In this document: positions 5,428 through 63,525 of the stretch, one piece after another | Layout: each line of letters starts with the position of its first letter | Position numbering within the stretch: the stretch's first letter is position 1 | Notes under the pieces: model-generated | Database searches by the model: none | Seen by the model: only the letters and a program-made list of their open reading frames with translations | Told to the model about the DNA's origin: nothing | Translations under genes and position numbers: made by a program | Assembly: GCA_019056785.1 (NCBI GenBank) | Contig: DXJV01000100.1 | Coordinates: forward strand, 10,796 to 74,795 | Direction: 5' to 3' | DNA length: 64,000 bases | Origin: Candidatus Heimdallarchaeota archaeon | GTDB lineage: Archaea > Asgardarchaeota > Heimdallarchaeia > JABLTI01

Positions 5428-8343
5428 CTAATCACCCCAGAATGGGCGAGTCCGAGAATACTCTTTTTCAGCATTGATAATTTCAGAATAGAACTCATAA
5501 TCCTCTTTGTCATAGCTTTTTTCAAGAACACGGCTAGCGCTTTTAGGACCAATGCCTCTCGCTGAAAGAGCAATAATGGCTTTTTTCCCAGAAGCAAGAA
5601 CAAGATCTGCGCTTTTATAGCCCTGTTTGAGGATTTTCTCTTCCTCCGGAGCCAATTGTTGATGACGTAAGTGTTTCTTCAAAACTTTATGAAGCTGTTC
5701 ATTGAAAGGAGAAACAGCAGCAAGATAGCGAGCGCCACATTTTGGGCAAGTTGGTTTCTCATCCAAATTACCTATTTTGCTAATAACATTGTAGTTTCCA
5801 CACCACATACAAATCAAACGAACTTCTTTCTTATCAAGGCGCCGTTGTACTTTTTCAGCTAACTGTCGATCGGGTTTTTTAGGAATAACAAAGCCAGTGA
5901 ACCGTAATTGATTAACAGCTACTTCAGCAAGAGGCGACAAGTCATCAATTTTCTTTTTAGCGATGGTAAGAATCTCAATTTCTTGAGCGTGTATTCGCTC
6001 TAAAACTTTCGTGGTTAAAGGTATATCCATCTTATCATGAATCAATTCATTTAGAGTGGCTTCAGCAACCAAGGTCCCTTCATATGCTCGAGCAATTTTA
6101 CGGGGGTGCATCTTTCCGGATTCCCAAGGACCACGAAGTACACCAAAGCGTTTGGCAATATGAACAAACCGCCATTCATACATTGTTGTTTGTGGGAGTG
6201 TTCTCCGCAAGAGCTCTTCGACAAACTCCCCACGAAGCTCACGAATGGCACTTTCAATGTGCTCGGGCTGGAGAAAATAAGGATACGTTAAAATGATACG
6301 ATAAGCATCTGATCGAAAGCCAATAGAACAAGCAAATTTAGCCATAAGAAGTGAGCTTATGAGCTGCCCGAGGGTTTGATTGACTTTATTGCCAAAATCA
6401 GCATGAATGACTGCCATATTTGACCCCAAAGTTTCAATAATCATTGTGCTATCAGTTGGCATTGGCATGTCTGTCGAGAAATGCTTAAAGAGGAAGGAAA
6501 CAACAACGGCTTTAGCATCTTCCTCAATAGGATAAGAATCTAAAGCTTTAATCGCCGCAAGGTAATTATCATCTTCAATAAAAAACTGTTGAACGGCTTT
6601 TCGGATTTTCCCGACTTCTTGCGATACTGAAAAAGGAACAGGGATCATTTCGCCGTCCCAAACAGGAAGAGCACCAATAGGATTGTGAACCGGGGCAACT
6701 TCCACACGGTCCTCATGTATAGCAAGGATTTTCCAAGGAACACCTTTTACAATAAAAACTGTTCCAACCTGCCCTTGAATTTCCACAAATTCCTCATCTA
6801 GGGTGCCAACATTTCGGTTTGTGGCAACATCATAAATGCGATACTTCTTAACGTCTCGAATGGGGCTAAGATTACCAAAATAATAATGAAGAGTGTTTCT
6901 CCGCCGAGTAATTATCTCTCCTTCCAGCCAAATTGTTCCTAACTCTTTCATTAATTGGAGAAGAGTAACAAGCTCTTCGCGGGTAAGGCCTTTATAGGGG
7001 TAGGAACGTTTGACGAGTTTTAATAATTCATTGATAGAGACCGGACTAGTCTCCATAAGAATGCCGGCAATTTGATGCGAAAGTACTTCCCAGGGTTTAA
7101 TGTGAGGTTTGGGGACCTCGAGTTCCTTGTTAAGGGCTTTTCTACCAATGACAGCAGACTCGAGTATATCTTCTGCATCAATGGTAATTAAAATCCCATG
7201 GCTTGTTCTTCCAATTTTGTGCCCACTACGACCAACACGCTGAACAAGTGGTGCAATGTCTCTACTAGACATCATTTGAATAACAGTATCTACTGAACCA
7301 ATATCTATACCAAGTTCAAGACTCGAGGTACAAATTATGGCTTTTAATTGCCCGTTTTTAAAACGATTCTCAGCTTCTTTCCGAATTTCTTTTGAAAGAG
7401 ATCCATGATGCACGCCGTAAGGGAAATCTGTGCCGATTAGACGCATTCGATTGCCCAAAATTTCAGCGAATTGTCGAGTATTTGTGAAAACAAGGGTGTG
7501 TTCATGTTTCCTAATAATGTCAATAACTTTACATGCGCGAGCCGTTGCCTCCGGACTCGAGTAAATTCTCTCGGCCAGAGAATGATCCTCTTCTGAAGGT
7601 TTTGGATAAAGAATGTTCAATGAAATAGCTTTTTTGGTAGGTTCTTCAATAATGGTGCATTTTCGATGAGGACCAACTAATAACTTCGCTACTAAGGCTG
7701 GATTGCCGATTGTGGCTGAAAGCCCGATTCTTTGAAAGCTGTCTGGACAGAACCGTTCAAGACGTTCTAAAGCCAAAAAGAGTTGGGTGCCACGTTTTGA
7801 ATCAACAAGCTCGTGGATTTCATCAATGATTACCCATGAAACATTACGTAAGTGCTGCCCCAAGCGTTTGGCGGTTAAAATAATACCAAGCGTTTCCGGC
7901 GTGGTTATTAACATATGAGGTGGGTCTAATGTTTGTTTGCGTCGTTCATGCTGTGTTGTATCAGAATGGCGAATACTTGTACGAATACCCAGTTGATTGC
8001 CGATCTCAATGACTCGTTTGAAAATATCGCGGTTCAAAGCACGAAGAGGAGTAATATAGAGGATATTTATCCCAGGCTTTTTAACGCCCTTTTCCCATTG
8101 CGCAAGTAATCGATTAAAAACAGGGAGAACCGCCGCTTCTGTTTTGCCAGAACCCGTGGCACTAATGATCAAGGCATGCTCATGCTTTTCTATAACAGGG
8201 AAAGCCAATTGCTGAATAGGCGTGAAGGCTTCAAAACCAAGAGTGTCAATAACCTTTTGTAAGTTAGGACAAAAACTGCGATGGTTGAGCATGCAAAAAA
8301 CTCCAATAAGTACTTGTGATAAGTTAGCTTTTTTAAATTCCAA
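5428..8343 (-). CDS. lhr: Lhr-like DEAD/DEAH helicase (likely start is ATG at 8292)
   Basis: ATGSGKT, TPLRAL, DEIHE, LSAT, HHGSLS, TSSLELGID, QRVGRSGH; C-terminal CxxC..CxxC. Confidence 0.93.
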   Translation of the reverse strand: MEFKKANLSQVLIGVFCMLNHRSFCPNLQKVIDTLGFEAFTPIQQLAFPVIEKHEHALIISATGSGKTEAAVLPVFNRLLAQWEKGVKKPGINILYITPLRALNRDIFKRVIEIGNQLGIRTSIRHSDTTQHERRKQTLDPPHMLITTPETLGIILTAKRLGQHLRNVSWVIIDEIHELVDSKRGTQLFLALERLERFCPDSFQRIGLSATIGNPALVAKLLVGPHRKCTIIEEPTKKAISLNILYPKPSEEDHSLAERIYSSPEATARACKVIDIIRKHEHTLVFTNTRQFAEILGNRMRLIGTDFPYGVHHGSLSKEIRKEAENRFKNGQLKAIICTSSLELGIDIGSVDTVIQMMSSRDIAPLVQRVGRSGHKIGRTSHGILITIDAEDILESAVIGRKALNKELEVPKPHIKPWEVLSHQIAGILMETSPVSINELLKLVKRSYPYKGLTREELVTLLQLMKELGTIWLEGEIITRRRNTLHYYFGNLSPIRDVKKYRIYDVATNRNVGTLDEEFVEIQGQVGTVFIVKGVPWKILAIHEDRVEVAPVHNPIGALPVWDGEMIPVPFSVSQEVGKIRKAVQQFFIEDDNYLAAIKALDSYPIEEDAKAVVVSFLFKHFSTDMPMPTDSTMIIETLGSNMAVIHADFGNKVNQTLGQLISSLLMAKFACSIGFRSDAYRIILTYPYFLQPEHIESAIRELRGEFVEELLRRTLPQTTMYEWRFVHIAKRFGVLRGPWESGKMHPRKIARAYEGTLVAEATLNELIHDKMDIPLTTKVLERIHAQEIEILTIAKKKIDDLSPLAEVAVNQLRFTGFVIPKKPDRQLAEKVQRRLDKKEVRLICMWCGNYNVISKIGNLDEKPTCPKCGARYLAAVSPFNEQLHKVLKKHLRHQQLAPEEEKILKQGYKSADLVLASGKKAIIALSARGIGPKSASRVLEKSYDKEDYEFYSEIINAEKEYSRTRPFWGD

Positions 8344-8509
8344 GATAAGTCTAATAAACTCTTACGGTGAGAAAAAAAGTGCGAGAGGTTTACAATAGAA
8401 TGGTAAAGGGTAATTTTCAAGGGGCATTAAAGAAATAAGGAAAAGACAAAGAGTTTTTAAACAAAAAAAGAAAACAACAAATCACAAATTTGATGAGAGA
8501 ATGAAAACA

Positions 8510-8617
8510 ATGGTCGATACGAATACAATTCTCTATATTATCTATGTTGTTCTTATATTAGGTGGCCTTTTAGCTTTGGGTTATCACTTAGTTTCTGGCG
8601 AAGAAGAGGAAACCTAA
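8510..8617 (+). CDS. 35-aa single-TM microprotein, Ost4-like (not in ORF track)
   Basis: MVDTNTILYIIYVVLILGGLLALGYHLVSGEEEET; Y25-H26-x-V28 falls in the same register as eukaryotic Ost4; alternative in-frame ATG at 8501. Confidence 0.65.
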   Translation: MVDTNTILYIIYVVLILGGLLALGYHLVSGEEEET

Positions 8618-8807
8618 AACCTTTCGTAGAAAAACGCTTTTTATTTGTGCACCAGGTAAGAAAGATTTTGTGATTACTAAAGAAACGTACCTTGTTTTGG
8701 AAATTGCTAATTTGCTACAATAGTTTCAGCTATCTCTCCAGCAACGGTTTTTTAGGGCATGACAAAGAAACTAATAAAAGAGTAAAGAGGACATATTGTG
8801 AAAACAA

Positions 8808-9977
8808 ATGGCATTTTACCAGCATGAACCAAAAACGAATCTCATGACAACAACTACAACAAAGCAATTTATCTTCCATGTTGATTTAGATGCCTTTTTT
8901 GCAGCGGTAGAAATACGAGAGAACCCTTCACTGAAAGGAAAACCGGTTATGGTGGGGGGTGAGAAAGAAACAAAGAGGGGTGTTGTCACTACTTGTAATT
9001 ATGAAGCGAGAAAATATGGTGTGCGCTCTGGGATGTCAGCAAAAGAAGCAATAGAGCTTTGCCCGGAGATAATCTGTATCCCTCGAGGAAACTATTCGCT
9101 TTACCGCCAAGTGTCAGATAATATTATGGACATTTTAAACTCCTATACCGAACAATTCAGAAGAGCATCGATTGATGAAGCATATCTCAACTTAACAGAA
9201 GCAGTTGTTAAGAAATGGCATGGCTATCCAATTCCTCTTGCACAGGAGATAAAAAAGGAGATTTATGAAGAGGAACGGATCACCTGTTCCATTGGCATTG
9301 GACCAAATACAACTATTGCTAAGATTGCCACGAGTAGGAACAAACCGGATGGAATCACTTATGTTACCCCAAAAGCCATACGAAAATTTCTCGCGCCATT
9401 ACCAGTAAAAGCCATTAGTGGCATTGGACCAAAAACGGCAGAGCGATTAAAAAAGAAGCATCAAATTACAACTATAGGTCAAATTATCGCCCTGGGTACT
9501 GAGTTCGAAATGATCAGAAAATTTGGGCGATTGGGAAGCTTTTTTTATCGTGTCATCTCAGGAAAAGGAAGGACAATCATTGAACCGAAGAGCTCTTATG
9601 GTGCGAAATCAATCAGTAAAGGGCGAACGTTTTATGGAGAACTATTCGATGGGGAACCTCTAACTGTGGAACAAGTTCTGCCTAAATTAATAACACAAGT
9701 TTATGAACGAACTGTGAAAAAACGGTTCAGATATAAAACAATCACGCTTGATGTGCGCTTTCAAAGGACCTTTCAAAATGTTTCGAGAAGTAAGTCATTT
9801 TTAACAGCCAATGATGACTTTGAACGGCTCCGAGAAACAACCTTTGAGCTCCTAAACGACATTCAAAAAGATTTTGAGGGAGAAGTGATAAGAAAGGTTG
9901 CTGTAAGGGTTTCGAATCTCCAACACGAAGACCCATTACAGAAACCACTTTCAGAATTCTTTACGAACGCCTCTTAA
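8808..9977 (+). CDS. dinB: DNA polymerase IV (Y family)
   Basis: HVDLDAFFAAVE, CNYEARKYGV, SIDEAY, KPDG, GIGPKT. Confidence 0.95.
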   Translation: MAFYQHEPKTNLMTTTTTKQFIFHVDLDAFFAAVEIRENPSLKGKPVMVGGEKETKRGVVTTCNYEARKYGVRSGMSAKEAIELCPEIICIPRGNYSLYRQVSDNIMDILNSYTEQFRRASIDEAYLNLTEAVVKKWHGYPIPLAQEIKKEIYEEERITCSIGIGPNTTIAKIATSRNKPDGITYVTPKAIRKFLAPLPVKAISGIGPKTAERLKKKHQITTIGQIIALGTEFEMIRKFGRLGSFFYRVISGKGRTIIEPKSSYGAKSISKGRTFYGELFDGEPLTVEQVLPKLITQVYERTVKKRFRYKTITLDVRFQRTFQNVSRSKSFLTANDDFERLRETTFELLNDIQKDFEGEVIRKVAVRVSNLQHEDPLQKPLSEFFTNAS

Positions 9978-11874
9978 AGTTTCGTAAAGAAGGGCGTCTC
10001 CACTTTCTGAAAAGAAGAACGATAAGACCGCCAATTAAGATTGAGATTAGAGGGAGGGGTGTTTCTGGTGTGAGAAAAACAACTTCGGTCTGCAAAGGCG
10101 TTTGATAAAAAGTCCGGAGGAGAAGCATGTTTCGTGCCAGATAAACAGTCGCACTATCAGTTTTATTTGTGAGAGTGAAGGATAAAGTCGTTTTGCTGCC
10201 GTTGATCCAAACGGTTGTGACAAGCTTTTCAAAGGGTGTTATAATTTCTAGTGGGAGAGGAAGTTGATACCAATCCTTCTCGGCATTTGTAACTTTGATC
10301 GTAATTGTGAGGCCATCTTGGGAGCTTGCAGTTAATGATAATTTAGGTAAGCCTGTTTTAAAGTACCATTGATCAAAAAACCAAGTAAGGTTCTGGTGAG
10401 ACACAGAGGAAAAAATTGAGGTGAAGTCCTTGAAAAAGAGGTTACTACCAGCAAATGTTTGATAAATCACTTGAAGACAGGCGAGAAATGTTTCTGTGCC
10501 CAAGTAATTTTCCAACATTTTTAACACGACAAAACCTTTGTCATAAACAGTGTAAAAATATGGCAGGCTGTCACCAAAGGAGGTCCAATATGCCATTGAA
10601 GAGCCGAGTTTGAAATCGCCTTTGTCTAATGAGTATGCCTCATAAACTTTATAGCGGTACGCTGTTTTTTCTTTGGCATCATCTGTCCGATTTTGAGCCT
10701 CTAAGAAATAAATGGAAGTCCAGACAGCAAAAGGTTCATCGATAAAAGGTTCGAGATAACTATTTGTCCCTAAAATGAATGGAAAATACTGATGAGCAAT
10801 TTCATGGACAATGACTTCTTCCCAATAGAGAAAATTAGAGCCATTATAATAAGTATTATGAGCGATTAAAACCAGACCAGGATACTCCATCCCACCACCA
10901 CCTGGAAAAGTCACAATGGCAAGGGTTTCCCAAATATATGGACCAAATGCAGAAGAATAAATTTCAAGTGCTTGTCGGCCCATTTCAGTCGCAAGTTTAC
11001 CACGATACTCAAGCTCTTCATCGTCAAAATAATAGGACGTAATCGTTGTACCATTCCAGGTAGTGGAAGACTTGGCAAAATCGGGGCTCGCTGCAAAAGC
11101 AAGGTCACGTATCGTTACTTTCTCGTAAATGATCGTTTTTTTCACGCCCACAACTTGAGTTTTAACTGGTAAAGAACACGCCACCTGGAAGGTTTTTGGT
11201 ACAGTTAAAATCATTTCATAAGAACTCATATCATAATAGAAAGACTCACCCATAAAGGAATAGGGGCTTCTATCCCAACCATTTTGGTCATAAACTGCTA
11301 AAACCGGGTACCAATTTGTTAAATAATAAGCTTCATAGGGAGAAAGAATATAACCAAACCTGTCCTCCAACTGCGGGATAGTAGTAGTGAAGTCAATTGT
11401 GATGATAACGCTCTTAAGAGGGAGTAAGGTTGCATTCAAATTTATTTCAAGAATAGTATCAGTAATTTGATGACTACTCGAGTTGAGCTGATCGCCCTCT
11501 ACTTGTAAAGTATTAATCACAATATCGCCACCATAAGAAACAAATGCCTTGGGGTGAACATGAAAAACAAGCTGGCTAAGAGGAACATTCTCTGTATTAG
11601 TATAATTTACAACCAGAACACCCGAAATGGAGGCAGTAGCAACATCTAATTCAACAGTAAAAAAGTAACTATTAATAATTGTAGGAGTCTTTGGTTTCAC
11701 TGAGTTTCTTAAGGAGGGGGCTTGTTCTTTCTTGGTTGATGTGGCAGATGAAATAATGGAGATACTTTTCCCATGACTGGATAATTGAACAAACATCACG
11801 CCCATAAACAGTAAAACAAAGAAAAATCCAATAATTTGTCTTTCTGATTTTTTCTGCATTTCTCTAAAACACAC
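9961..11874 (-). CDS. Secreted, C-terminally anchored M1-family zinc aminopeptidase
   Basis: Signal peptide, GGMEYP, HEIAH..E, C-terminal TM followed by basic tail. Confidence 0.9.
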   Translation of the reverse strand: MCFREMQKKSERQIIGFFFVLLFMGVMFVQLSSHGKSISIISSATSTKKEQAPSLRNSVKPKTPTIINSYFFTVELDVATASISGVLVVNYTNTENVPLSQLVFHVHPKAFVSYGGDIVINTLQVEGDQLNSSSHQITDTILEINLNATLLPLKSVIITIDFTTTIPQLEDRFGYILSPYEAYYLTNWYPVLAVYDQNGWDRSPYSFMGESFYYDMSSYEMILTVPKTFQVACSLPVKTQVVGVKKTIIYEKVTIRDLAFAASPDFAKSSTTWNGTTITSYYFDDEELEYRGKLATEMGRQALEIYSSAFGPYIWETLAIVTFPGGGGMEYPGLVLIAHNTYYNGSNFLYWEEVIVHEIAHQYFPFILGTNSYLEPFIDEPFAVWTSIYFLEAQNRTDDAKEKTAYRYKVYEAYSLDKGDFKLGSSMAYWTSFGDSLPYFYTVYDKGFVVLKMLENYLGTETFLACLQVIYQTFAGSNLFFKDFTSIFSSVSHQNLTWFFDQWYFKTGLPKLSLTASSQDGLTITIKVTNAEKDWYQLPLPLEIITPFEKLVTTVWINGSKTTLSFTLTNKTDSATVYLARNMLLLRTFYQTPLQTEVVFLTPETPLPLISILIGGLIVLLFRKWRRPSLRNFKRRS

Positions 11875-11890
11875 TCACTCTATTTTTTTG

Positions 11891-12418
11891 TCAAATGGTT
11901 TCTTTTCCTTTAGCAATGCCATAACGCACTTTGACGGCAACGCCTTTCTGAAAAGCAAGCATGTACGAAGCTGAAAGTTTTGCTCGTCCGACAGCTAAAA
12001 GCTCGTCTTCTTCAGAAACAACGATAACCTCATCTTCTGGCAAAATTTCAGGGTCAACTGAAACAACGTGTTTTGCAAAGACATTACGACCAGCAGCAAT
12101 GAATTCAGCAACATCGGATTGGATTATTACTCGCCGTTTTGGGCTCGAGACAAAAACAAGTACACGCTTTGCCCCCTCTAATCCAAGGGAGAAGAGCCCA
12201 TCCTGTGCACGTAATGTAGCTAACCGTTTGCCGTCAAGAAGCACTTCACGAACCTTTTTAGTCGCTCTCGAAAAAGTAACTTGAATGGTATCAGGGGCCA
12301 ATGCTTCAGCAAACTCGGGGCCAAATTGATATTGGGCGATAGTTTTTAATTGCCGGAGGGTCCAACCATCGGGTGATTGAGCATTCTTTGTTTTTGATGG
12401 CACTTGAAATTTCTCCAA
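11891..12418 (-). CDS. PUA-domain protein (archaeosine TGT C-terminal-like)
   Basis: IAQYQFG, GRNVFAKHV, DEVIVV, GVAVKVR. Confidence 0.88.
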   Translation of the reverse strand: MEKFQVPSKTKNAQSPDGWTLRQLKTIAQYQFGPEFAEALAPDTIQVTFSRATKKVREVLLDGKRLATLRAQDGLFSLGLEGAKRVLVFVSSPKRRVIIQSDVAEFIAAGRNVFAKHVVSVDPEILPEDEVIVVSEEDELLAVGRAKLSASYMLAFQKGVAVKVRYGIAKGKETI

Positions 12419-12453
12419 AGAGAACTACCATATGCTCCCTTTTTATTTTAACC

Positions 12454-13320
12454 TTATTTCTTGGAAATCCGAACGTCCAACACGATATGCTCTATCCCAG
12501 GGGCATATTTTTTCACTATTCGCCGAGAAAGAATAGTAACAGCAGCCTTTTCCAGCATTGCAGCATTGTGAATACGATTAATAGGCCGTTGTACGGCAGT
12601 AGCTTTGTTAGGAACAGCTTCATGATAATGAATTATTCCCCCATCCCTACAAAGGCGGATCGCCAAGCGTATTTGTTCCTCGCTCGAGAACAAATAACCT
12701 ACAAGAACGCGATCGGCAACATCTCTATATCGTGGAAGGGTTGTGCAATTGTCGCCAAAGACAGGTTCAACAATACTTTCTACTTTATTTAATTGGATAT
12801 TCTCTTGTAAATAGTGAAATGCCAGAGGATTAATTTCTGCTGCAATGAGTTTTTTAGGCGAGTTATTTACCGCTAAGGGGAGAGAGAGATTACCAACACA
12901 ACTGAACATATCAATGATAATCTCACCGGGCGAAGTTATTTGCACCAGTCGGGTTCGTTCACCATGATTCCCAGGCGAGAACGTTAATTTAGCGGCATCA
13001 AGTTTGAATAAACAGCCAAGCTCCTTATGTATGGTTTCAGTATTAGGATCGCCCGCGAGTAAGTGGTATTGCGGTTCGCGAATGATGGCTGTTGTAGGAC
13101 CGATCTTTCCAAGAACAGAGCGAACAGGTTTAGAAAGGACTTGCAAAAATGCCTTACCGATGATTTCACCATAGGGAATTAATTCTCGAGGCAAAGAAAA
13201 AAGTACAATGTCACCTAAAAACCACCATCTTTTTGGCAAAGACTCGAGTAACTGCTCTGGAATATGAGGGGCTAAAAAGCTTTTTAGTTGAATTATTGTG
13301 GCATTATTCGCTTTCGTCAA
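12454..13320 (-). CDS. Trm5/Tyw2 (Met-10+) family SAM-dependent tRNA-modifying enzyme
   Basis: ETIHKE, FSPGNHGER, DMFSCVGN, EINP, DRVLVGY, KKYAPG. Confidence 0.88.
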   Translation of the reverse strand: MTKANNATIIQLKSFLAPHIPEQLLESLPKRWWFLGDIVLFSLPRELIPYGEIIGKAFLQVLSKPVRSVLGKIGPTTAIIREPQYHLLAGDPNTETIHKELGCLFKLDAAKLTFSPGNHGERTRLVQITSPGEIIIDMFSCVGNLSLPLAVNNSPKKLIAAEINPLAFHYLQENIQLNKVESIVEPVFGDNCTTLPRYRDVADRVLVGYLFSSEEQIRLAIRLCRDGGIIHYHEAVPNKATAVQRPINRIHNAAMLEKAAVTILSRRIVKKYAPGIEHIVLDVRISKK

Positions 13321-13819
13321 CGTTCTTCCTCAGAAAATCCGCAAGTAATTTGCTCAGAAAGGTAACGCTTTCTTTTACCTTAGGAGTCATTTCTTCAAGA
13401 TAACTTAAGGACTGGGGTTCAATGCCGATGAAGAAGGCTTTAAGATGTTTGAGGAAATGGCGAAGATATTTAAGATACATCTTCATGGATGTTTTATGCG
13501 GGGTGATCATAAACGCGTCATCAATATCTTTCTCTGTAAAGACGCGGATGGTTCCAGGAGATTCACCCATATTTGCGGCGTCGATAATAATTAAATAATC
13601 CGGGCGTTCTTTTTTTATAACACCGGTGAAGGCTTCAGGAACAGGACCGCTATTTAAGATAACAATGTTCTTCGGGAAAGAATAATTTTGTAACTCGTCC
13701 AGGACAGCCCCCCCAACGTAATCATCGGAACGGTCAAAGTTTCCAATGCCAAGAAGGCAAATTTTTTTCTCAAGGTTGATTTTCTTCAACTTTTTCCAAT
13801 TTATAACTTTTTGTGGCAT
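13304..13819 (-). CDS. hycI: Hydrogenase maturation protease (HycI-like)
   Basis: LGIGN..RSDD..G, GPVPE, IIDAA, TPH, GIEP. Confidence 0.85.
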   Translation of the reverse strand: MPQKVINWKKLKKINLEKKICLLGIGNFDRSDDYVGGAVLDELQNYSFPKNIVILNSGPVPEAFTGVIKKERPDYLIIIDAANMGESPGTIRVFTEKDIDDAFMITPHKTSMKMYLKYLRHFLKHLKAFFIGIEPQSLSYLEEMTPKVKESVTFLSKLLADFLRKNVDESE

Positions 13820-13852
13820 TTACAACACCTGAAATAAAAGGGGGAATCTAAG

Positions 13853-15439
13853 TCATAGGAATTTTGGCCCTTCAGGGAGCTTATCAATGTATTTCAGAAC
13901 TTTGCTAGGCCAAGCATCGACTTTTGTTCCCTTTTGAGCGACAAAAGCTGAAATATATCGTTCAAAACTACCACCGCCACAACCTGACCAAACCTCTTTG
14001 CCTGATTGCGATTTCACAGTAAAGCTTTTTGGATATTTCTGACCGATTATTGAAACATTCTGTGTCTCCAACCAATGGCTGGTTTCACGCATGCCACGAT
14101 AAGGCATATAGACTTCAAAATCGATTGTACCTACTCTGTCAAATGTTTGGAGGGTGACTTGCTCCTCTTCAGTGTCAGCAACACCTTCTTGGCTGGTCCA
14201 CCAAGGAGTAACCCATGCTTCCTGGAATTCTAGGTCAAGTATCTCCCCCAGAATCTTACGAAAACGGAGACGCAATTTTTGAGCAATGGTTTTAATTTGC
14301 TCCGGAAAACCAATGTAAAGTGTCTCGATACGATGTAACTCATCTACACGTTCAAACCCATGTGCAGCCCCACTTTCGTAGCGGTAAGTTGGCCCGGACC
14401 AATCGTAAACGAAAATGGGAAAACTATCATCAGCAATGGTTTTGCCTTGGAGGTAGATCCAAAACGGTGGGCACTGAGCGAAACTTAATCCGCCTATTGG
14501 AGGGCGAAGTTTCTCCATAATCTTCTCGGGTTCAACTTCGAGGGTAATGCGGTAATAATCTGCAATTTCTTCCCAAAACTCAGGGTCGGCGGTTTTCGGT
14601 GTGCAAACAAAGTACGGTTCAAAACCCCCTTGGTAAATGCCAGAAAGATGCCCACTTCGTTTCCAAATATCCCATGGAACAACCTTTGGAAAGATCATAT
14701 TCTTAAAACTTAGGGGCTTATAGAGATGTTCAATCATAATTTGTTTTAAGGCTTCTGCTAAAGCAGTTATTTGTGGGCCAAAAATCCATTGGTTACGATA
14801 ACCGGTTCTTTGGATCCAACCCTCTTTTATCATTAACTCCGTAGGATTATCTGTGCAACGAATCTCCTTTTTGGGGGAGCTCCAAATAACAAGATGGTGT
14901 TCATCCTTCCCACGAATCATTTCCTCAATAACTTTGTTTCTAACCAACTTTACTAATCTATCAATAGCGCCTTTTTCAATAAAGTCTATTGGGATGTTCT
15001 TTTGAAGGGTGACCGTAGCAGATGTATCTGAAAATTTAATGGAGGAAACAAAAGGAAGAGAGAATTCTTTCATGGGCCGGCGGGGGATATCAACATCGAT
15101 TTTATAAGATTTAATGACAATACCACTTATCCCAAGACGAAATTCACGGCCCAGTTTTTGGCTGAAAAATTTGCGCATTCGTAAAAGAGCATGATGGGGG
15201 GGCAAAATGCCACCACTAGTCATTGTAAACTGGAGCTCATCCTCTTTCTCAGAACGAGAAACAACAGACCATTTTGTGACCCGAGAAATTTCAGGGAGAT
15301 CTTTCTTTTTAATTCCTTTCTCGAGTAAAGCTTGCAATTCAGTAAGCCACTGGTCGATTAAACTCTTGGCGGTTGCAGGAAGCTTTCCCCGGATAATAAA
15401 ACTAAATTTGAGATGATACCGCATTGATTTGTTCCTCAA
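13853..15439 (-). CDS. serS: Seryl-tRNA synthetase, methanogen-type (type 2, Zn-dependent)
   Basis: AQCPPFW, RYESG..GFERVDELHRIE, WSGCGG; N-terminal domain lacks the bacterial-type coiled coil. Confidence 0.88.
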   Translation of the reverse strand: MRNKSMRYHLKFSFIIRGKLPATAKSLIDQWLTELQALLEKGIKKKDLPEISRVTKWSVVSRSEKEDELQFTMTSGGILPPHHALLRMRKFFSQKLGREFRLGISGIVIKSYKIDVDIPRRPMKEFSLPFVSSIKFSDTSATVTLQKNIPIDFIEKGAIDRLVKLVRNKVIEEMIRGKDEHHLVIWSSPKKEIRCTDNPTELMIKEGWIQRTGYRNQWIFGPQITALAEALKQIMIEHLYKPLSFKNMIFPKVVPWDIWKRSGHLSGIYQGGFEPYFVCTPKTADPEFWEEIADYYRITLEVEPEKIMEKLRPPIGGLSFAQCPPFWIYLQGKTIADDSFPIFVYDWSGPTYRYESGAAHGFERVDELHRIETLYIGFPEQIKTIAQKLRLRFRKILGEILDLEFQEAWVTPWWTSQEGVADTEEEQVTLQTFDRVGTIDFEVYMPYRGMRETSHWLETQNVSIIGQKYPKSFTVKSQSGKEVWSGCGGGSFERYISAFVAQKGTKVDAWPSKVLKYIDKLPEGPKFL

Positions 15440-15496
15440 AATCTTAGACAGTGAAGAGAAGATAAATCTTTCTAGTTCTCTAAAACAAAAGGGAAA

Positions 15497-16444
15497 CTAA
15501 AGAAAGACAAAGATAAGTGGTGGGAGGAAAAATAATAAGGTCATGATGAAGAACACCAAACTGTACCAAAGGCGACGTCTTCGTCGAATGTCAAAATAGA
15601 GAGCATTTGTACGCATTTCTGCAAGGCGCTCAAAGGAGAAGGGGACAAGCTGCGGTTCATCCTCTTGCCCGGGAAAGAAGATGTTGATAGAGGTGTGTTT
15701 ATCGAGTTTTACTTTTTCTATAACGCCTTTTTCTTTCCGCTTTGGATCAAAAATGATTTTCACTTTATCAGTGAAATCGCGATAAATAACAGGGAAAAAG
15801 ACAACAGCACCAATTTTTAGGCCTTTGCGTTTAATATTAAGCTCATCATAGGTTTTCTTTTTGACCGCGAAAAGTAACTTGCGTGATTGGAGGGAAACCA
15901 TCCATGCTTCAATAACAATCTGTTTCGTTTTCTTTTCTCCCACAAGAAAATCCTCGAGTTTGATATAAAATAATCCTTCTTTAGTTAGAGAAAGAAGCCG
16001 GTTAAAAAGAACCTCATTATCTTTATCGTAAATGGTAATCTCTATCTCATTATCCATACATTGTTCAATAACATAACCGGTGATGAATAACCCCTTACCG
16101 ACAACTGTTGCATCACTCGGAGCGATGATTCGAATTGGAATGGTTCTTTGCCCGCCCCATACGCCAAAAATACCACCAATGAATAACGCAAGCCCACCGT
16201 CAATCATAAGGAGAATAGTCGACCAATAATAGAAATCATTGGAGGAGTTAGAATGAACCTGAATTACTCGAGCCAAACCTAAGCTTGCACCATAAATAAC
16301 AAGCATAATACCAAACAGAATCAGAGCAATCTTGTAGAAGGGCATTGGTGGTTTGACTTTTTTCTCCTCTTTTAACGCAAGTTTCAGCTTATCTTTCTTG
16401 CGTTCTTCAGCATCTTTAAAGGCATCTAAATCCAGGCGGGGCAT
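15497..16444 (-). CDS. Hypothetical membrane protein
   Basis: Two N-terminal TMs, a soluble beta-rich domain and a C-terminal TM. Confidence 0.7.
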   Translation of the reverse strand: MPRLDLDAFKDAEERKKDKLKLALKEEKKVKPPMPFYKIALILFGIMLVIYGASLGLARVIQVHSNSSNDFYYWSTILLMIDGGLALFIGGIFGVWGGQRTIPIRIIAPSDATVVGKGLFITGYVIEQCMDNEIEITIYDKDNEVLFNRLLSLTKEGLFYIKLEDFLVGEKKTKQIVIEAWMVSLQSRKLLFAVKKKTYDELNIKRKGLKIGAVVFFPVIYRDFTDKVKIIFDPKRKEKGVIEKVKLDKHTSINIFFPGQEDEPQLVPFSFERLAEMRTNALYFDIRRRRRLWYSLVFFIMTLLFFLPPLIFVFL

Positions 16445-38192: not shown

Positions 38193-38360
38193 TCATTTAT
38201 TATTCATTTTTTTACAAATAAAGGAACTGTTTTCATAGGTGATGCCTATCGTATCGCCTTTTTTAATTCCCATCGCATTTACTATCTCAATTGGTATGGA
38301 GAGTTTGTATACTCCTGCATTATAAATTACTTTTCGTTCAAAAACTATTTTTCCTGACAT
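38193..38360 (-). CDS. AbrB/MazE/SpoVT-family DNA-binding protein, 55 aa (not in ORF track)
   Basis: MSGKIVFERKVIYNAGVYKLSIPIEIVNAMGIKKGDTIGITYENSSFICKKMNNK. Confidence 0.85.
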   Translation of the reverse strand: MSGKIVFERKVIYNAGVYKLSIPIEIVNAMGIKKGDTIGITYENSSFICKKMNNK

Positions 38361-56164: not shown

Positions 56165-57874
56165 ATGAATGAAGCTGAAGAACGAGAAATAATGTTATTG
56201 TTAACACAATTGAAGGAAGCAGAAAATATCGACATCCGTGCCGGTGCAGCTGAACAACTGGGACGAAAAACGCTTTTACTCGACAAGATCGTGCCTGCTT
56301 TGAAGGAGGCTTTGAATGATGAAAATTGGCTCGTACGGGTAAAGGTTGCTCAAGCGCTTGGTATGCTCGGGAAAGTTGCCCTTCCAGCCTTAGAAGCCCT
56401 GCGAGAGGCGATGAAAGAACCACGGAATAAAGCAAAACGCGGAGCATTTTATGAAGTTGTTCAAAAACTTGAGAACTTACAGATAACATTAGAAGAAGTT
56501 GGTGAAGTAGAACAACAACCAAGTACAGTAGTTAAAGAGGAAGCAGCACCCAGCCAGCCAATTAAACCCGCCGAGGAAGAAAAAGGCGAAGAGGAAGAAA
56601 AGGCACAGGAACAAAAAGAGGAACTGGAAAAACCGGAACCGACGCCAGCAGAGGTTGAAAAAGTAGCCGAAGAAAAAGTGTCGCCACCATCTGAAGTAAC
56701 AGCACCGGTACAGGAGAAGCCGCCTGAGGAGCCACCAACAGAAGAAACTGCAAAAGAAGAAGAAGCCGAGCCGGCAAAAAGCGAGGACGAAGCAGAGGTG
56801 ATTGAAGAGGCAGTAGAAGATGCTGTCGAAGATGCAATAGAAGATGCCATTGAGGAAGTAACTGACCAACCTGTTGAAGAAGATGTTGTTGAGAAGGTAG
56901 CGGAAGAAATCGCAGAGGAAGTAGTGGAGATCCAGGAACCGTCTGTGGAAGAGCAACAACCAGAACAACTTGAACCAGAAGAAAAAGGCGAAGAGGAAGA
57001 GAAACAAGCGCCTCCAAAAGAAGCAGAGAAAAAAGAGGAGGAGAAAACAACAATTGAAAAGGAACAACCGGAAATAGAACCAACTGAAACCAAAGAAGGA
57101 GCCACTACACCGACAGAAACAGCAAAAACAACAACAACAATTCAAGAGGAAATGATAAGCGAAAAACAGCCGGTTATTAAGACAGTTGAAGAAAAAGCAC
57201 TCGAGGAGATAAAGGAACCAGTGCCATTGGATGAAGTGCTGGAGTTCGAAGATGAGACGAAAACAGACGACGAGAAAAAAAAAACGATTTTGACTCTTCC
57301 GGAGGAACTGCCTGAACAAGAACTACCTGCAAAGAAATACGAACAAATTATTGTGAAAGTTATTCTTCTTGGCGATAAAGCGGTTGGAAAGAGCAGCTTA
57401 CGAACAAAGTACTGTGACAAACAACGCAAGGACGAATTTCGAGAAACTCTCGGAGCAGATTTTGTATCCAAACACCTCGAGAAGGAAGGGAAACACTATG
57501 CAATTCAGGTATGGGACCTCGCCCCTGGGCGAAAAATCGACGACCTCCGAGAAACATTTTACAAAGGAACAAAGGGGGCAGTTCTTGTCTTTGATGTTAC
57601 CGACCGGGCCACCTTAACAAACTGTAAGAACTGGCTGAAGGAGGTAAAAGAGCAAGAGCCAGAAAGCAGCTTCATTCTTGTTGGAAATAAAATAGACAAA
57701 CGTATTGCTGGTGAAGAGGGGCAAGTAACAACTGAGGAAGGCAATGCATTTGCACAAGAACTCTCGCTCGAAGCGGGGAGAACCGTCCCTTATGTGGAAG
57801 TTTCGGCAAGTACAGGAGAACAAGTCGAACACGCTTTTGAGCTGCTTCTAAGCCAGATACTTGAGACAAATTAA
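56165..57874 (+). CDS. HEAT-repeat / acidic linker / Rab-like GTPase fusion
   Basis: VPALKEALNDENWLVR HEAT; E/P/K-rich linker; GDKAVGKS, TLGADF, WDLAPG, FYKG, GNKID, VSAS. Confidence 0.88.
   Translation: MNEAEEREIMLLLTQLKEAENIDIRAGAAEQLGRKTLLLDKIVPALKEALNDENWLVRVKVAQALGMLGKVALPALEALREAMKEPRNKAKRGAFYEVVQKLENLQITLEEVGEVEQQPSTVVKEEAAPSQPIKPAEEEKGEEEEKAQEQKEELEKPEPTPAEVEKVAEEKVSPPSEVTAPVQEKPPEEPPTEETAKEEEAEPAKSEDEAEVIEEAVEDAVEDAIEDAIEEVTDQPVEEDVVEKVAEEIAEEVVEIQEPSVEEQQPEQLEPEEKGEEEEKQAPPKEAEKKEEEKTTIEKEQPEIEPTETKEGATTPTETAKTTTTIQEEMISEKQPVIKTVEEKALEEIKEPVPLDEVLEFEDETKTDDEKKKTILTLPEELPEQELPAKKYEQIIVKVILLGDKAVGKSSLRTKYCDKQRKDEFRETLGADFVSKHLEKEGKHYAIQVWDLAPGRKIDDLRETFYKGTKGAVLVFDVTDRATLTNCKNWLKEVKEQEPESSFILVGNKIDKRIAGEEGQVTTEEGNAFAQELSLEAGRTVPYVEVSASTGEQVEHAFELLLSQILETN
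56576..57000 (+). repeat. Intragenic repeats in the acidic linker
   Basis: 23-nt gaagaaaaaggcgaagaggaaga at 56576-56598 and 56978-57000; tandem (V/I)EDA units near 56810-56858. Confidence 0.8.
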
Positions 57875-59738: not shown

Positions 59739-60485
59739 ATGAGCGACGACATTGAACTAGAAGTAAGAAAACTCCGCATCTTGACGGCTAATAACGTTCT
59801 GAACACCTACCCCTATCTCAAAGGCAAACTGCGAGGGGTCTATAAAGTATGCGTCACAGGGATCTCCGGCAGCGGGAAGACAACAATGATTCGCTGTTTC
59901 GACCCCGAGGCGCACGGGAGAGAAGTCCCGAGATATTTCTATGTCGATTATGAACTGTTGAAAGATAATCCAGATCTTTTCCCGGAGTCGAACACCGCCA
60001 CCCAGACGTTCGACTTTACGGTGGTGGCACTCCTCCTGAACGAGGAGAACAAGTCAGAAATCATCAAGCTAAACGACCTCACAGAGGAGTACTTGAGCGA
60101 GAAGCGCATTAAATGGGTGACGATTTTCTACCTGTTCGGCACCCCTGGACAATGGCGCTTCAAAGACATCAGGGCATTCGCCGAGCGGCGGTCCGACGGT
60201 GTGATCTTTATCATCGACCCCATCGACCCCAAACTGCGGGAGAATTTCGAAGAATTCCGTGAGCAGGTGATAAAAAACGTCGAACGAAAAGTCCCGATCA
60301 TTTACGCCGTGAACAAACAAGACCTGCCAAATGTCCACAGCTCGAAAGACCTGACAAAAGAACTCGCCATCAAAGAAAAAGACATCTTCGATATCTCCGC
60401 CCTCAAGTGTAAAGGCATCGCCAAACCCATTATCGCCCTCATCAAGAAAATGCAGGAAGAAGAACTGGGGAAAAAGAAAGACTAA
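59739..60485 (+). CDS. Small GTPase, MglA/ATP_bind_1-like
   Basis: GISGSGKT, TQTFDF, LFGTPGQWRF, NKQD, ISAL. Confidence 0.88.
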   Translation: MSDDIELEVRKLRILTANNVLNTYPYLKGKLRGVYKVCVTGISGSGKTTMIRCFDPEAHGREVPRYFYVDYELLKDNPDLFPESNTATQTFDFTVVALLLNEENKSEIIKLNDLTEEYLSEKRIKWVTIFYLFGTPGQWRFKDIRAFAERRSDGVIFIIDPIDPKLRENFEEFREQVIKNVERKVPIIYAVNKQDLPNVHSSKDLTKELAIKEKDIFDISALKCKGIAKPIIALIKKMQEEELGKKKD

Positions 60486-60671: not shown

Positions 60672-61010
60672 ATGGAATTCTGCGACGAATGCGGCGCAAT
60701 GCTCACCCCCAAAAAAATAGACGGAAAAGTAATGATGGTCTGCCCAAAGTGCGGCGAAAAGAAAAAAGAACTGACAAAAGAAGAACAAATAGTAAAGGAA
60801 AAAGTAAAACATACAGAAAAAGAAAGTATGGTGGTCATAGAAAATCCAGAACAAATAAAAACAATGCCAACGAAAAAAATGCACTGCCCAAAATGCAAGT
60901 CAGTACAGGAAACGCAATATTGGACAGTGCAAACGCGAAGCGGGGATGAAGCGCCGACAAGATTCTATAGATGTACAAAGTGCAAAACGACATGGAGAGA
61001 ATATGACTAG
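60672..61010 (+). CDS. tfs: Transcription factor S (TFS/RpoM)
   Basis: FCDECG, CPKCG, CPKC..QTRSGDEAPT..CTKC..WREY. Confidence 0.96.
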   Translation: MEFCDECGAMLTPKKIDGKVMMVCPKCGEKKKELTKEEQIVKEKVKHTEKESMVVIENPEQIKTMPTKKMHCPKCKSVQETQYWTVQTRSGDEAPTRFYRCTKCKTTWREYD

Positions 61011-61016
61011 CTTTTA

Positions 61017-62069
61017 TCACCTAACAGCTTTTTTCTTGCTGTCCTTTCCCCGGCTATGTTCCGAGCCTTCTCGGTCCTCGAGTTGGTTGGGCTCTCTCGA
61101 GTCAGCATTGCTCATGCTCGGGGAATAGATGCATCTCAGCATCCTTAGCCTCTGAGTGTTTTCCCACTCTTTGCTTGGCCGTTGTTGAGATTTTTTTTCG
61201 TCAGCTAGTACTAGTTTTCCTTTTAAAAAGTCCCCTATTGCCAGGTTGACCATTAACAATAGGTGATTTCTCAATGATTTTCTCCCATAGCTCATCGATT
61301 CTACTATTCGTTTTAGTTCCTTTGAATGGTAAATGTAGTGATAAAGTTTGTATGCCGACTGTTGTTTTTCTTCTATTTCTTTTGCCAGTTTTTCAAAGTC
61401 AATTTTTCCGTTTTTATAGTCATATCGTTGAGCTACTTTCTTTGTTTTTCTCCTGCTTATGTAGGCAGCCATTTTATCATAGTATTTCACTCTGGAGAGG
61501 AGAGTATTTTCTTCTACCGGTTGCTCGTGGTGCCTTTGACATGCTACTCGTATTTCGGGGTCGTGGATGGTGACTTCAACATAGATCTTGCTAATATGTT
61601 TGGAGGTTTGCACAAAATCGTGTAACATTAAGGCACAAAGTAAACGCTGGAGTGCAAGGGGGTAGTTTGGCCCCAACCCCTTGCGTATTCTCAATTTCCT
61701 TTTTTTCACTCGCAGTTGTGTTTTTCCTTCCTCTTCTCTATAAGTCAACCATTGAATCTTCCCAAACCCTTCACAAGTACCTCTCCCTAGATAGTCTTTT
61801 AACAGATAGGTTTTAATGACCTCTCTTGCCCGTGTCTCGTTCCAGTCATAGCAAGTTATGCGAACGTAGCCTCGAAAACCTTTGAGCACTGTCGGCTCCC
61901 GACGCTCCCCCTTCACAAGCTTTCCGGGATAGCTTCGAAGTGGATATCTTTGCATATCATTTAAAGCCCTGAGCACTTTGATCCTCACCGGCCCTTTTTT
62001 CATCACTGGAGAGGAAGTAATAAGAGGCGTTAGTAATTTTCCCTCGAGAATATAGCGTTTCTTCACCAT
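61017..62069 (-). CDS. Cas5-like RAMP fused to Cas10-type HD nuclease domain
   Basis: YILEGKLLTPL, G-loop YLGRGTCEGFGKI; LMLHDF, H, RHH, YDKMAA, SLRNH. Confidence 0.75.
   Translation of the reverse strand: MVKKRYILEGKLLTPLITSSPVMKKGPVRIKVLRALNDMQRYPLRSYPGKLVKGERREPTVLKGFRGYVRITCYDWNETRAREVIKTYLLKDYLGRGTCEGFGKIQWLTYREEEGKTQLRVKKRKLRIRKGLGPNYPLALQRLLCALMLHDFVQTSKHISKIYVEVTIHDPEIRVACQRHHEQPVEENTLLSRVKYYDKMAAYISRRKTKKVAQRYDYKNGKIDFEKLAKEIEEKQQSAYKLYHYIYHSKELKRIVESMSYGRKSLRNHLLLMVNLAIGDFLKGKLVLADEKKSQQRPSKEWENTQRLRMLRCIYSPSMSNADSREPNQLEDREGSEHSRGKDSKKKAVR
61024..61169 (-). ncRNA. Candidate structured RNA overlapping the 3' end of the Cas5-HD gene
   Basis: Four-way junction: TTCCCCG/CGGGGAA closing three hairpins, plus two flanking hairpins; strand assumed from the operon. 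Confidence 0.55.
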
Positions 62070-62830
62070 GACTGTAATGCCTCCTCCATCTCACGCCAAA
62101 GGTTTTGGACCTTTGTTTCCTCTTGTACCTTCCCCTTTACGATGGTTCGCTCCAGCCTAACTTTTTGCAGCTGAATGTTCTCCAACACCAACTTTCCTGC
62201 GCCATTATTTCCTCCCCTCCCCCAACGCAATTCGGGCATATAGAGGATGCCCTTCAATAAAAAGCCCAACTCTTTTTTTGTCAACTTTCCTAATAACTCA
62301 ATGGTAAAAATTAACCGTCCGCCGATGTAACGATCCTTGAAATTCTGAATGCTCTTCTTTGTTTTATACATCAATGAAGTGCGGTTCTCAGTTCCAATAT
62401 GTATTTTCTGTGCATCCTCAAATGTGCCCTTCAAATTATCTGAAACAACGATCACCGAATCGAACCGTATGAGCGACTGCTTTTTTATGGAGCCCATGAT
62501 TTTATGTTTAATGCACTCGTTTTCCGGGAAACATGAGCCATTTGGATGAAATCCTTCAGGTAATAATCGCACACCTGCTTGTGTTTCTCTCTTATCCGAT
62601 GAATGACACACCTCTATGCCTTGCTGCTGTGCTAGCGCCATCATCGCGTGGTTTAACATCCCCCGTAACCCTTTAACCATGTATCTGCTCCCTGCTTTTC
62701 CTTCGGCTTGTTCATTATATGCTAACAACAAATTCGTTGTATTCCCTCCACGGATCACCCCATTTCCCGGCTTTGCTATTGGCGTTTTCGCCTGAATTTT
62801 TATTCGTTTAAAGGTTCGTGCAACGAGCAT
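62063..62830 (-). CDS. Cas7-like RAMP (Csm3 group) with Zn-finger-like insert
   Basis: IKIQAKTPI, KGLRGMLNH, C..H..C..CIKHKIMGS, ENR thumb, ELGFLL, G-loop WGRGGNNGAGKL; SD GGTGG. Confidence 0.82.
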   Translation of the reverse strand: MLVARTFKRIKIQAKTPIAKPGNGVIRGGNTTNLLLAYNEQAEGKAGSRYMVKGLRGMLNHAMMALAQQQGIEVCHSSDKRETQAGVRLLPEGFHPNGSCFPENECIKHKIMGSIKKQSLIRFDSVIVVSDNLKGTFEDAQKIHIGTENRTSLMYKTKKSIQNFKDRYIGGRLIFTIELLGKLTKKELGFLLKGILYMPELRWGRGGNNGAGKLVLENIQLQKVRLERTIVKGKVQEETKVQNLWREMEEALQSW

Positions 62831-62926
62831 TTTTACCCACCTTTTAGGATTTTTCCTATTTTATAGGCAATTCTATCGCAACCGTTATATTTAAAGATTT
62901 CCCATAAAATGGTAGAGTGTGGGATT

Positions 62927-63094
62927 ATGTCTAAAATTGCTATTCCGGTAGTTATTGACGCGCGATTTCGAATTGTCATTCCGAAAGAGATTCGGGAAGA
63001 AGTAGAAGGCTTGGAGCCTGGCGAGAAGTGGTTGTTAGAGTATGATCTTGCTGGGAGCGAAGAGCAGTTAATTCTCAGGCGGCTTCGCCGGTAA
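62927..63094 (+). CDS. AbrB/MazE/SpoVT-family DNA-binding protein
   Basis: VVIDARFRIVIPKEIREEVEGLEPGE. Confidence 0.85.
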   Translation: MSKIAIPVVIDARFRIVIPKEIREEVEGLEPGEKWLLEYDLAGSEEQLILRRLRR

Positions 63095-63295
63095 GTGGCT
63101 GGTGAAGAGCCACAGGCAACTTTTTTCATGGGCGGGAAGCAAGAATATTTTCCCGAGCAGTTGTTGTATTGCCACATTTGCGGAGCTATTCCCTGGCGTT
63201 TTATTTCTCTTTTAGCTGTTCGTGAGACAAACATATTCATTACCTGAATGATTCATTACGAAAACATTAATATGATATTACTACACCACCAAAGC

Positions 63296-63318
63296 TTATA
63301 AATATTACGGAAACCGTA
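63296..63318 (+). promoter_or_regulatory. TATA box followed by a palindromic operator
   Basis: TTATAAATA then TACGG-AAA-CCGTA. Confidence 0.5.
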
Positions 63319-63351
63319 TGAGAGCCATAATACTATCCGAGAGAATGTAAA

Positions 63352-63525
63352 ATGGCAAAAATTATTTTTAAACGACAGGTAATTTTCAATAAAGGGTCAC
63401 TCCAGATGAACATTCCGAAAGAGATTGTTGAGGCGTTAGGGTTGGAAAAGGGGGATACGATAGGGATCACGTTGGAGGACGAGGGCTTTTATTGTAGAAA
63501 GCTAAAGCAAGGAGAGGAGGGGTAG
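63352..63525 (+). CDS. AbrB/MazE/SpoVT-family DNA-binding protein, 57 aa (not in ORF track)
   Basis: MAKIIFKRQVIFNKGSLQMNIPKEIVEALGLEKGDTIGITLEDEGFYCRKLKQGEEG. Confidence 0.85.
   Translation: MAKIIFKRQVIFNKGSLQMNIPKEIVEALGLEKGDTIGITLEDEGFYCRKLKQGEEG

Follow-up and report, generated by a model that had tools for sequence, protein, structure and literature searches.

Array-less CRISPR derivatives designated ARAMP were reportedly described by Makarova et al. in CRISPR J in 2020. The accessible parts of published summaries present them as array-less and type III-derived, comprising Cas5 and Cas7 homologs plus nucleases, usually HNH and PD-(D/E)xK, and mostly a distinct Cas1 (PMC8730458, PMC12669027). 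Both HRAMP and ARAMP have so far been gene sets only, with a mechanism that has been called enigmatic and is assumed to be non-programmable, as no source of guides has been seen. Here we describe a module comparable to these systems in a Candidatus Heimdallarchaeota archaeon (assembly GCA_019056785.1). The stretch analyzed, hereafter the window, makes up the final 64 kb of the 74,795-bp contig DXJV01000100.1 (C65 in our numbering), so that the end of the window is the end of the contig. About 0.5 kb from this end lies a module of two genes, encoding a Cas7-like RAMP protein (P0001) and a small, Cas5-like RAMP fused to a Cas10-type HD domain (P0002). The end of the operon carries a structured candidate RNA element, which could be the non-CRISPR RNA partner of the module.

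In a DNA alignment of the family, the last ~180 nt are conserved at the nucleotide level whatever the reading frame or stop codon, and in most relatives the conservation continues up to ~50 nt past an earlier stop. The conserved block overlaps the last ~60 codons of the Cas5-HD gene of the window, whose product reads the conserved motif in another frame than its relatives do; the protein tail encoded there (residues 291-349) is predicted to be disordered. The 3' terminus of the element, GGUGAUA, contains the stop codon of this gene. RNAalifold and per-sequence folds gave a closing stem (AUCUCA/UGAGAU plus GGCA/UGCU) followed by a variable hairpin, a long stem (CCCCGAGCAUG / CAUAGCCGGGG in the window), a three-helix junction and a variable terminal hairpin (ACAGC/GCUGU in the window). 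The long stem has many compensated pairs, reading UCCCCG/CGGGGA in the window and UCUCUG/CAGAGA or UUUCCG/CGGAAA elsewhere, and the terminal hairpin is present in 15 of 16 copies with stems unrelated in sequence. A local hairpin, GGAUGC/GCAUCC, and the long-range P1 stem are both invariant, so the alignment cannot choose between them.

The covariance model of this element (R2) finds 25 significant copies, with 154 bits for the window copy (E 1e-36), and recovers copies outside its training set, namely a solo copy on contig C10, the remnant on C47 and the diverged paralog on C49 of the same genome. In the R2 alignment, which like the other alignments used for pair counts was fitted to the structure model and thereby favours structure, 96.1% of the cells are paired versus 29-42% when the partners are slid, and 12 of the 23 pairs are doubly changed versus 1-5 in controls; the observed values are reached by 0 of 500 shuffles. 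The conserved G.U pairs fit the gene strand only. Neither the window region nor any of seven related loci has a match in Rfam.

Among 11 other genomes of the family, 10 contain the element, with 1-13 copies each, and there are more copies than intact genes. It was not detected in G199, the one sister genome in which the protein is missing as well. Solo copies lie on C10, C80 and C65 (C65:537). Many protein matches are 3'-terminal remnants, in which the 5' truncation varies and the 3' end is constant, and in the remnants examined in fetched loci the gene is decayed and the adjoining element well kept. Together these data show that the element is a covariation-supported multi-helix structure on the gene strand, co-distributed with the proteins.

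Elements at the same position were also observed in other clades. In Ca. Borrarchaeum, a structured element of different sequence follows the HD gene in 12 of 12 loci; nine loci have an element between the two genes as well, and some carry tandem or third copies. Its model has 29 pairs, 12 of them doubly compensated, with 96.4% of cells paired versus 41-50% when slid, again with 0 of 500 shuffles reaching these values. Hod/Thor-type loci have a conserved element at the same place, with a GAGAAGGCTTGGAA block in common with the window type, and the short motifs UCUCA/UGAGA and the terminal GGUGAUA recur across clades.

Comparison with sister genomes places the element at an insertion edge. The orthologous TFS gene was found in three sister genomes from the same genus, which contain it and are mutually syntenic for at least 7 kb downstream of it, with no module, LAGLIDADG gene or element there. 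Their homology to the window ends at the TFS stop codon, and the complement of the terminal GGTGATA begins 4 nt later. At this site the cassette is thus an insertion, with no more than 4 nt between one of its edges and the element's 3' terminus. On the far (left) side, no shared motif was found beyond the LAGLIDADG gene and no inverted or matching element is present; the genes found downstream in the sisters are absent from this assembly. Other copies likewise lie beside housekeeping genes, which are EF-2 for the C49 copy and P0/L12 for the copy on C10. A search of the genome with the flanks and variable regions of the element gave no second match, save a 17-mer inside the zinc-ribbon-coding flank.

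The two proteins had been proposed in a first-pass annotation, made from the sequence alone, to be translationally coupled RAMP proteins, and both open reading frames (ORFs) were confirmed, with a 7-nt overlap at 62063-62069. The first was said to have the landmarks of Cas7. These are present and mostly invariant: across 30 sequences of the family, the KGxRG..H helix, a C75/H95/C100/C106 cluster, which is a putative zinc cluster, and the G-rich loop are all conserved. P0001 exceeds the cut-off of the Pfam RAMPs family (25.0 versus 22.1 bits) and matches the PADLOC Csm3 model (3.2e-5), and the matches of its family profile to solved structures include Cas7-11, type VII Cas7 and Csm3. The AlphaFold2 model has a predicted local distance difference test score (pLDDT) of 81.6 and a predicted template modelling score of 0.81; the best Foldseek match is the type VII Cas7 chain 8z4j_J (E 1.8e-9, TM-scores 0.51/0.64), followed by type IV-A chains and Csm3, with a probability of 1.0. 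By profile and predicted structure, P0001 therefore has the Cas7 fold, based on the RNA recognition motif with thumb and G-rich loop. In the segment from strand 1 to the KGxRG helix, where the annotation had seen no obvious Csm3-type catalytic Asp, no acidic residue is conserved in the 30 sequences, and only K20 and N23 are. P0001 thus looks, from its sequence, like a non-cleaving Cas7 backbone subunit.

P0002 gave no match by sequence in Pfam, NCBIfam or PADLOC, nor in a profile search of the PDB. At least 82 homologs were found, nearly all from Asgard metagenome-assembled genomes (MAGs). The AlphaFold2 model (pLDDT 80.3) is confident for residues 1-290 and shows a Cas5-like RAMP at residues 1-~120 and an HD domain at residues ~137-288, ahead of the disordered tail that overlaps the RNA element. 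Invariant in 30 sequences are a G-rich loop with G95/G101/G103/W107 and the residues H150-D151, H158, H180-H181, D198 and H269. Structure searches recovered both folds expected by the annotation. For residues 1-120, Foldseek returned type III, type VII and Cmr1 RAMP chains, and in an exhaustive structural alignment against 48,161 PDB representative chains the best rows had Z 7.7, 7.0 and 6.4; judging by chain length, these are probably Csm4, Csf3 and type VII Cas5. For the HD domain, the two top rows of the 48,161 were the N-terminal HD domains of Csm1/Cas10. Residues 2-217 of 6ifk_A align onto residues 137-285 of the model with Z 8.6 (root-mean-square deviation 3.2, 135 aligned), followed by 6mua_A with Z 8.0 and Cmr2 (9x25_B) with Z 5.1, although for helical domains a Z of 8-9 does not settle the matter by itself and a Z below 13 can be chance.

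The motif order of the HD domain is HD-H-HH-D-H, all invariant, with no His ahead of the HD dyad. Circular permutation of the HD domain is a hallmark of Cas10 (PMC3150331). Because the motif order fits this permutation and the HD of Csm1 is the best fold match, we assign to P0002, as the annotation had, a Cas10-type rather than a Cas3-type HD domain; with its metal ligands intact, it is a predicted nuclease. The model of the 350-residue protein has nothing beyond the HD domain and no Palm/cyclase. Longer or fused relatives, including palm-bearing Cas10, were not found, which is weak evidence, and no relatives were found among viral contigs. The RAMP domain of P0002 is likely Cas5, a label that fits with the fusion to a Cas10-type HD and with a predicted contact with the Cas7-like protein. 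A two-chain prediction gave an interaction score (ipSAE) of 0.74 for P0001 and P0002 versus 0.01 for the best of three controls, with contact via the RAMP domain; of 80 solved complexes, 58 attain this mark, as do 2 of 110 mismatched pairs. Separate runs share at least 85% of contacts, and the pLDDT of the partner is at least 76. This supports binding of the two proteins to each other in the model, and the pass may stem from likeness to solved Cas5-Cas7 complexes.

The family was surveyed by a scan of one genome per species, which yielded 49 loci, with neighbourhoods compared by ORF clustering. The order Cas7-like, then Cas5-HD is kept in about 33 of the 49 loci. The module occurs in 27 of 251 sampled genomes of the phylum and in 8 of 63 genera, and is patchily distributed and multi-copy: Ca. 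Borrarchaeum weybense has at least 10 loci, several Heimdall MAGs have five or six, and the host genome has two full copies (C65, C49) and a fragment on C47. HD-only ORFs without RAMP (profile positions ~119-327) were seen at G235:C39:168977-169603 and G190:C159:8346-8936, and locus L019 (L019:9496-10618) holds two gene fragments in inverted orientation, which suggests that the cassettes are often rearranged. No tandem array is present in the 64-kb window, and 48 of the 49 loci have none within 10 kb, in agreement with the array-less state ascribed to the module at the outset. The sole array-like repeat within 10 kb of a related locus (L043:19-157) belongs to a Promethearchaeota MAG, in which a short fragment of the HD gene lies ~2.3 kb away from it. 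The possibility that the genes are decayed parts of a cas operon had also been raised; the module is not such a decayed operon, since about 33 loci retain the pair together with its catalytic residues. Coordinates of all features are given in Table 1.

Table 1 Features of the RAMP-HD module and its surroundings, in positions of the window
Feature	Position	Strand	Size	Basis
Candidate structured non-coding RNA element	61013..61193	- (gene strand)	~180 nt	nucleotide conservation, covariation
Junction: TFS stop (61008-61010), 4 nt, TATCACC (61015-61021; complement of GGTGATA)	61008..61021	.		sister-genome comparison
Small RAMP + Cas10-type HD gene (P0002)	61017..62069	-	350 aa	invariant residues, fold model
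Cas7-like RAMP gene (P0001)	62063..62830	-	255 aa	Pfam, PADLOC, fold model, family alignment
Divergent small AbrB/SpoVT-like ORF	62909..63094	+	61 aa	PF04014 20.1 bits, under cut-off 24.7
Divergent AbrB/MazE-like gene	63352..63525	+	57 aa	PF04014 32.4 bits, over cut-off
LAGLIDADG_3 + HTH_3 protein, N-terminal part, cut by contig end	63572..64000	+	143 aa of ~530	paralogs

The divergent AbrB-like genes noted in the annotation are present as two ORFs, one over and one under the Pfam cut-off. Small divergent ORFs are found at the position of the first in related loci too, and the cluster of the second (c6) adjoins the Cas7-like gene in nine loci; the AbrB genes are thus conserved divergent neighbours of the module. 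A paralog of the second, with which it shares 55% identity over 49 aa, lies 25 kb away at about 38205-38351 of the window (C65:49000-49146), where the GC content is low (0.30-0.34 at 36-40 kb).

Next to these, a gene for a protein with LAGLIDADG and helix-turn-helix domains (LAGLIDADG-HTH) is cut by the contig end. Paralogs occur in the host genome on C88, C47, C16 (two) and C49, and the full-length ones match PF14528 and PF01381. Because the gene is repeated in the genome, it accounts for the contig break at position 64000; other assemblies break at the same place. The gene is found in most Heimdall-clade loci as a conserved divergent partner. On C16 (L056), two paralogs, 6205-7878(-) and 8326-10176(-), lie beside an ORF of about 1,310-1,320 aa, 11932-15867(+), which has no Pfam match and whose C-terminus matches the Cas1 part of a Borrarchaeum fusion protein described below (ad hoc hidden Markov model, E 2.6e-11); the LAGLIDADG family thus neighbours both the RAMP module and a Cas1-like giant. 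A helicase match on C76 was considered as a Cas1 fusion and rejected, being a plain 724-aa helicase. At the C49 paralog (L053), a 300-aa protein, 284-1186(-), with a weak, sub-threshold HEPN (RiboL-PSP) match is encoded between AbrB-like and LAGLIDADG genes. About 100 nt beyond the LAGLIDADG stop, a ~70-nt block (…GCGGTCACTACAAGCCCACTTACAGTGGTCTTGCTTAACG…) is conserved in three MAGs (L007, L008 near 3473, L013); it could represent a target site or a further gene for a small RNA.

The neighbourhoods of the module fall into three types. The Heimdall clade has an AbrB-like gene and the ~530-aa LAGLIDADG_3+HTH_3 protein; Hod/B3_Heim-type loci have three neighbour proteins without known families; and in Borrarchaeum a DEAD/DEAH helicase of ~1,330 aa fused to Cas1 (PF01867, 36.5 bits) lies upstream of the pair. 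No Cas1 adjoins the module at the window locus or in its clade. The annotation's link to ARAMP is supported by the helicase-Cas1 fusion, and its picture of a minimal two-protein module falls short, since there are conserved partners, LAGLIDADG-HTH in this clade or helicase-Cas1 in Borrarchaeum.

The host genome is a 2.87-Mb MAG of 102 contigs, 82.5% complete. CRISPR arrays are present at the ends of three other contigs, C30, C68 and C98. They are broken at the contig ends (C30:20578-20771, C68:19-330, C68:8843-9211 and C98:145328-145669; loci L002, L001, L003), with 37-nt repeats ending in ATTGAAAT on the three contigs and 30-nt repeats ending in GTTGAAAT on C68. No canonical cas genes were found in the assembled DNA flanking these arrays, and Pfam scans of the whole genome for RAMPs and Cas1 returned nothing, the RAMP scan being insensitive enough to miss P0001 too. 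Near one array lies a gene for a CARF/CasR-like protein of 508 aa (L003:15716-17242, minus strand). Elsewhere in the window, 56165-57874 (+) encodes a 569-aa protein with N-terminal HEAT repeats, an acidic low-complexity linker of ~300 aa and a C-terminal Ras/Roc-type small GTPase, and 59739-60485 (+) encodes a second small GTPase, Arf/Ras-like; both are eukaryote-like signature proteins typical of Asgard archaea.

We consider it probable that the module derives from a type III-like CRISPR effector and belongs to the array-less ARAMP type, and that in it a Cas5-HD/(Cas7)n complex assembles on RNA from the operon end and the HD domain cuts upon target engagement. The element would be transcribed together with or from the operon, and the complex would assemble on its RNA, with the Cas5-like domain holding one RNA end and copies of the Cas7-like protein coating a stretch. 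Target engagement by the ribonucleoprotein would then let the intact HD site cut nucleic acid. The AbrB proteins may repress the divergent promoters, and the LAGLIDADG-HTH protein here, or the helicase-Cas1 in Borrarchaeum, may contribute functions in DNA binding, cutting or integration. Biologically, the module could serve in defence, or in the cassette's own maintenance and spread.

Several observations weigh against this account. The fit of the alignments to the structure model and the modest Z scores of the HD domain have been given above. The Foldseek top rows for the RAMP of P0002 are chains of the size of Csm3, and its assignment to Cas5 draws on context and on a fold ranking that is weak. 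Neither Heimdall nor Hod copies are recovered by the Borrarchaeum model (R1), and R2 gives one marginal match on Borrarchaeum (E 0.03); the elements of the different clades are comparable in position, with homology between them unproven. The module fits the ARAMP kind by the description in published summaries, from which identity at the family level is inferred. The arrays elsewhere in the genome would allow the use of CRISPR RNAs (crRNAs) in trans.

The last point leads to the notion that a conventional type III (or IV or VII) system left the pair behind, either non-functional or served in trans by crRNAs from the arrays of the genome. The 37-nt and 30-nt repeat arrays at contig ends, the CARF/CasR-like protein near one of them and the position of the locus ~0.5 kb from a contig end would fit such an origin. 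We find it very improbable, given a two-gene core with invariant catalytic and structural residues in about 33 loci, the lack of arrays within 10 kb in 48 of 49 loci and the absence of canonical cas genes beside the arrays in the assembled contigs; the repeated LAGLIDADG gene explains the contig end, and the failure to find a palm-bearing or longer fused form adds weak evidence. A toxin-antitoxin or abortive-infection-like module, with an HD nuclease toxin checked by AbrB and/or an RNA antitoxin and no sequence-guided targeting, is improbable as well. It would account for AbrB/MazE-fold genes as conserved divergent neighbours, for the weak, sub-threshold HEPN-like neighbour of the C49 paralog and for a multi-copy, patchy distribution as in addiction modules. 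However, no recognisable MazF- or PIN-type toxin stands beside the AbrB genes in the window, a Cas7 backbone with a Cas5-like RAMP is built for holding extended RNA, and solo RNA copies without the nuclease gene would have no antitoxin role.

Two further readings concern the element itself. That its 3' end falls at the border of an insertion which three sister genomes lack, that remnants vary in 5' truncation and share a constant 3' end, and that a multi-copy cassette has candidate mobility enzymes nearby (LAGLIDADG-HTH, helicase-Cas1) would all be expected if the element acted in cis as the end of a mobile or integrative cassette, such as a recombination or attachment (att) site or a single-stranded DNA end structure; it might also be a stability or termination structure of the 3' untranslated region. 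The solo copies would then be decay remnants. Yet a ~180-nt multi-helix structure with compensated and conserved G.U pairs exceeds known archaeal att sites and terminators in elaboration, no inverted or matching element is found at the other side of the cassette, and extra and tandem copies lie inside Borrarchaeum loci. We regard this reading as doubtful, if the least improbable of the alternatives. It is compatible with an RNA partner, since one sequence can play both parts, as the omega-RNAs of IS200/605 elements do in being RNA partner and element end. The location of a scaffold end at the cassette edge suggests, by analogy with these RNAs, that the flank beyond the terminus might serve as a guide; the terminal hairpin with a GGUGAUAA-like 8-mer, which resembles a Cas6-type repeat end with its 5' handle, likewise hints at a flank guide, so that the organisation can be likened either to omega-RNAs or to a one-repeat crRNA with a hairpin and an 8-nt handle. 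The locus would then be an unrecognised RNA-guided element with its own scaffold RNA and the flank past GGUGAUA, or another variable segment, as guide. It might recognise empty alleles or the site of its own insertion and, with a LAGLIDADG or Cas1 partner, maintain or spread itself, the solo copies acting as extra guides in a "dispersed array". This last scheme we hold to be unlikely. For the favoured ARAMP-type effector assembling on operon-end RNA, a structured RNA linked to the module gives array-less RAMP systems a concrete, testable candidate for an RNA partner, and Cas5 fused to a Cas10-type HD would be a very compact effector layout. An RNA end at an insertion edge ties a class 1-derived effector to a mobile-element lifestyle, a link so far documented mainly for TnpB/IscB and CRISPR-associated transposons.

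Compared with known systems, the module is like ARAMP in its restriction to Asgard archaea, its diverged Cas7 and Cas5 with affinity to type III, its lack of an array and, in one clade, an adjacent and unusual helicase-fused Cas1. It differs in its predicted nuclease, a Cas10-type HD domain joined to the Cas5-like RAMP, in the LAGLIDADG-HTH partner in place of an adjacent Cas1 in the window clade, and in its candidate RNA, the accessible part of the ARAMP literature mentioning no associated RNA. HRAMP systems are also array-less Cas5/Cas7 derivatives with nucleases, as far as the accessible summary describes them (PMC8730458), and are set apart by that description through another host group and other nucleases. 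With the type III core (Cas10-Csm4/Cmr3 and the Csm3/Cmr4 backbone), the module shares a Cas7-fold backbone and a Cas10-type HD in both fold and permuted order, and the joining of the HD to a RAMP in the Cas5 position mimics the Cas10-Csm4 contact; unlike type III, it has no Palm/cyclase, Cas11, Cas6, array, adjacent adaptation module or conserved Csm3-type acidic residue. Types IV-C and VII are likewise reduced type III derivatives with Cas7 and Cas5 and a nuclease replaced or relocated. Type IV-C carries a Cas10-related HD on Csf1, and the Cas7 of type VII is the closest solved fold to P0001. In contrast to the module, both have arrays, and their nuclease is on the large subunit (IV-C) or is the beta-CASP protein Cas14 (VII), not on Cas5.

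OMEGA systems (IscB/TnpB, IS200/605) resemble the locus in organisation only: the nuclease gene is overlapped at its 3' end by a structured RNA, whose scaffold ends at the element edge and is followed by locus-specific flank, and the elements are multi-copy with many remnants. The proteins are unrelated (RAMPs and HD versus RuvC), and the locus has no TnpA and no recognisable second end, its flank being at most a hypothetical guide. Relative to the accessible literature, the layout with an HD domain on Cas5, the LAGLIDADG partner, the cassette behaviour and, above all, the dedicated structured RNA element are new.

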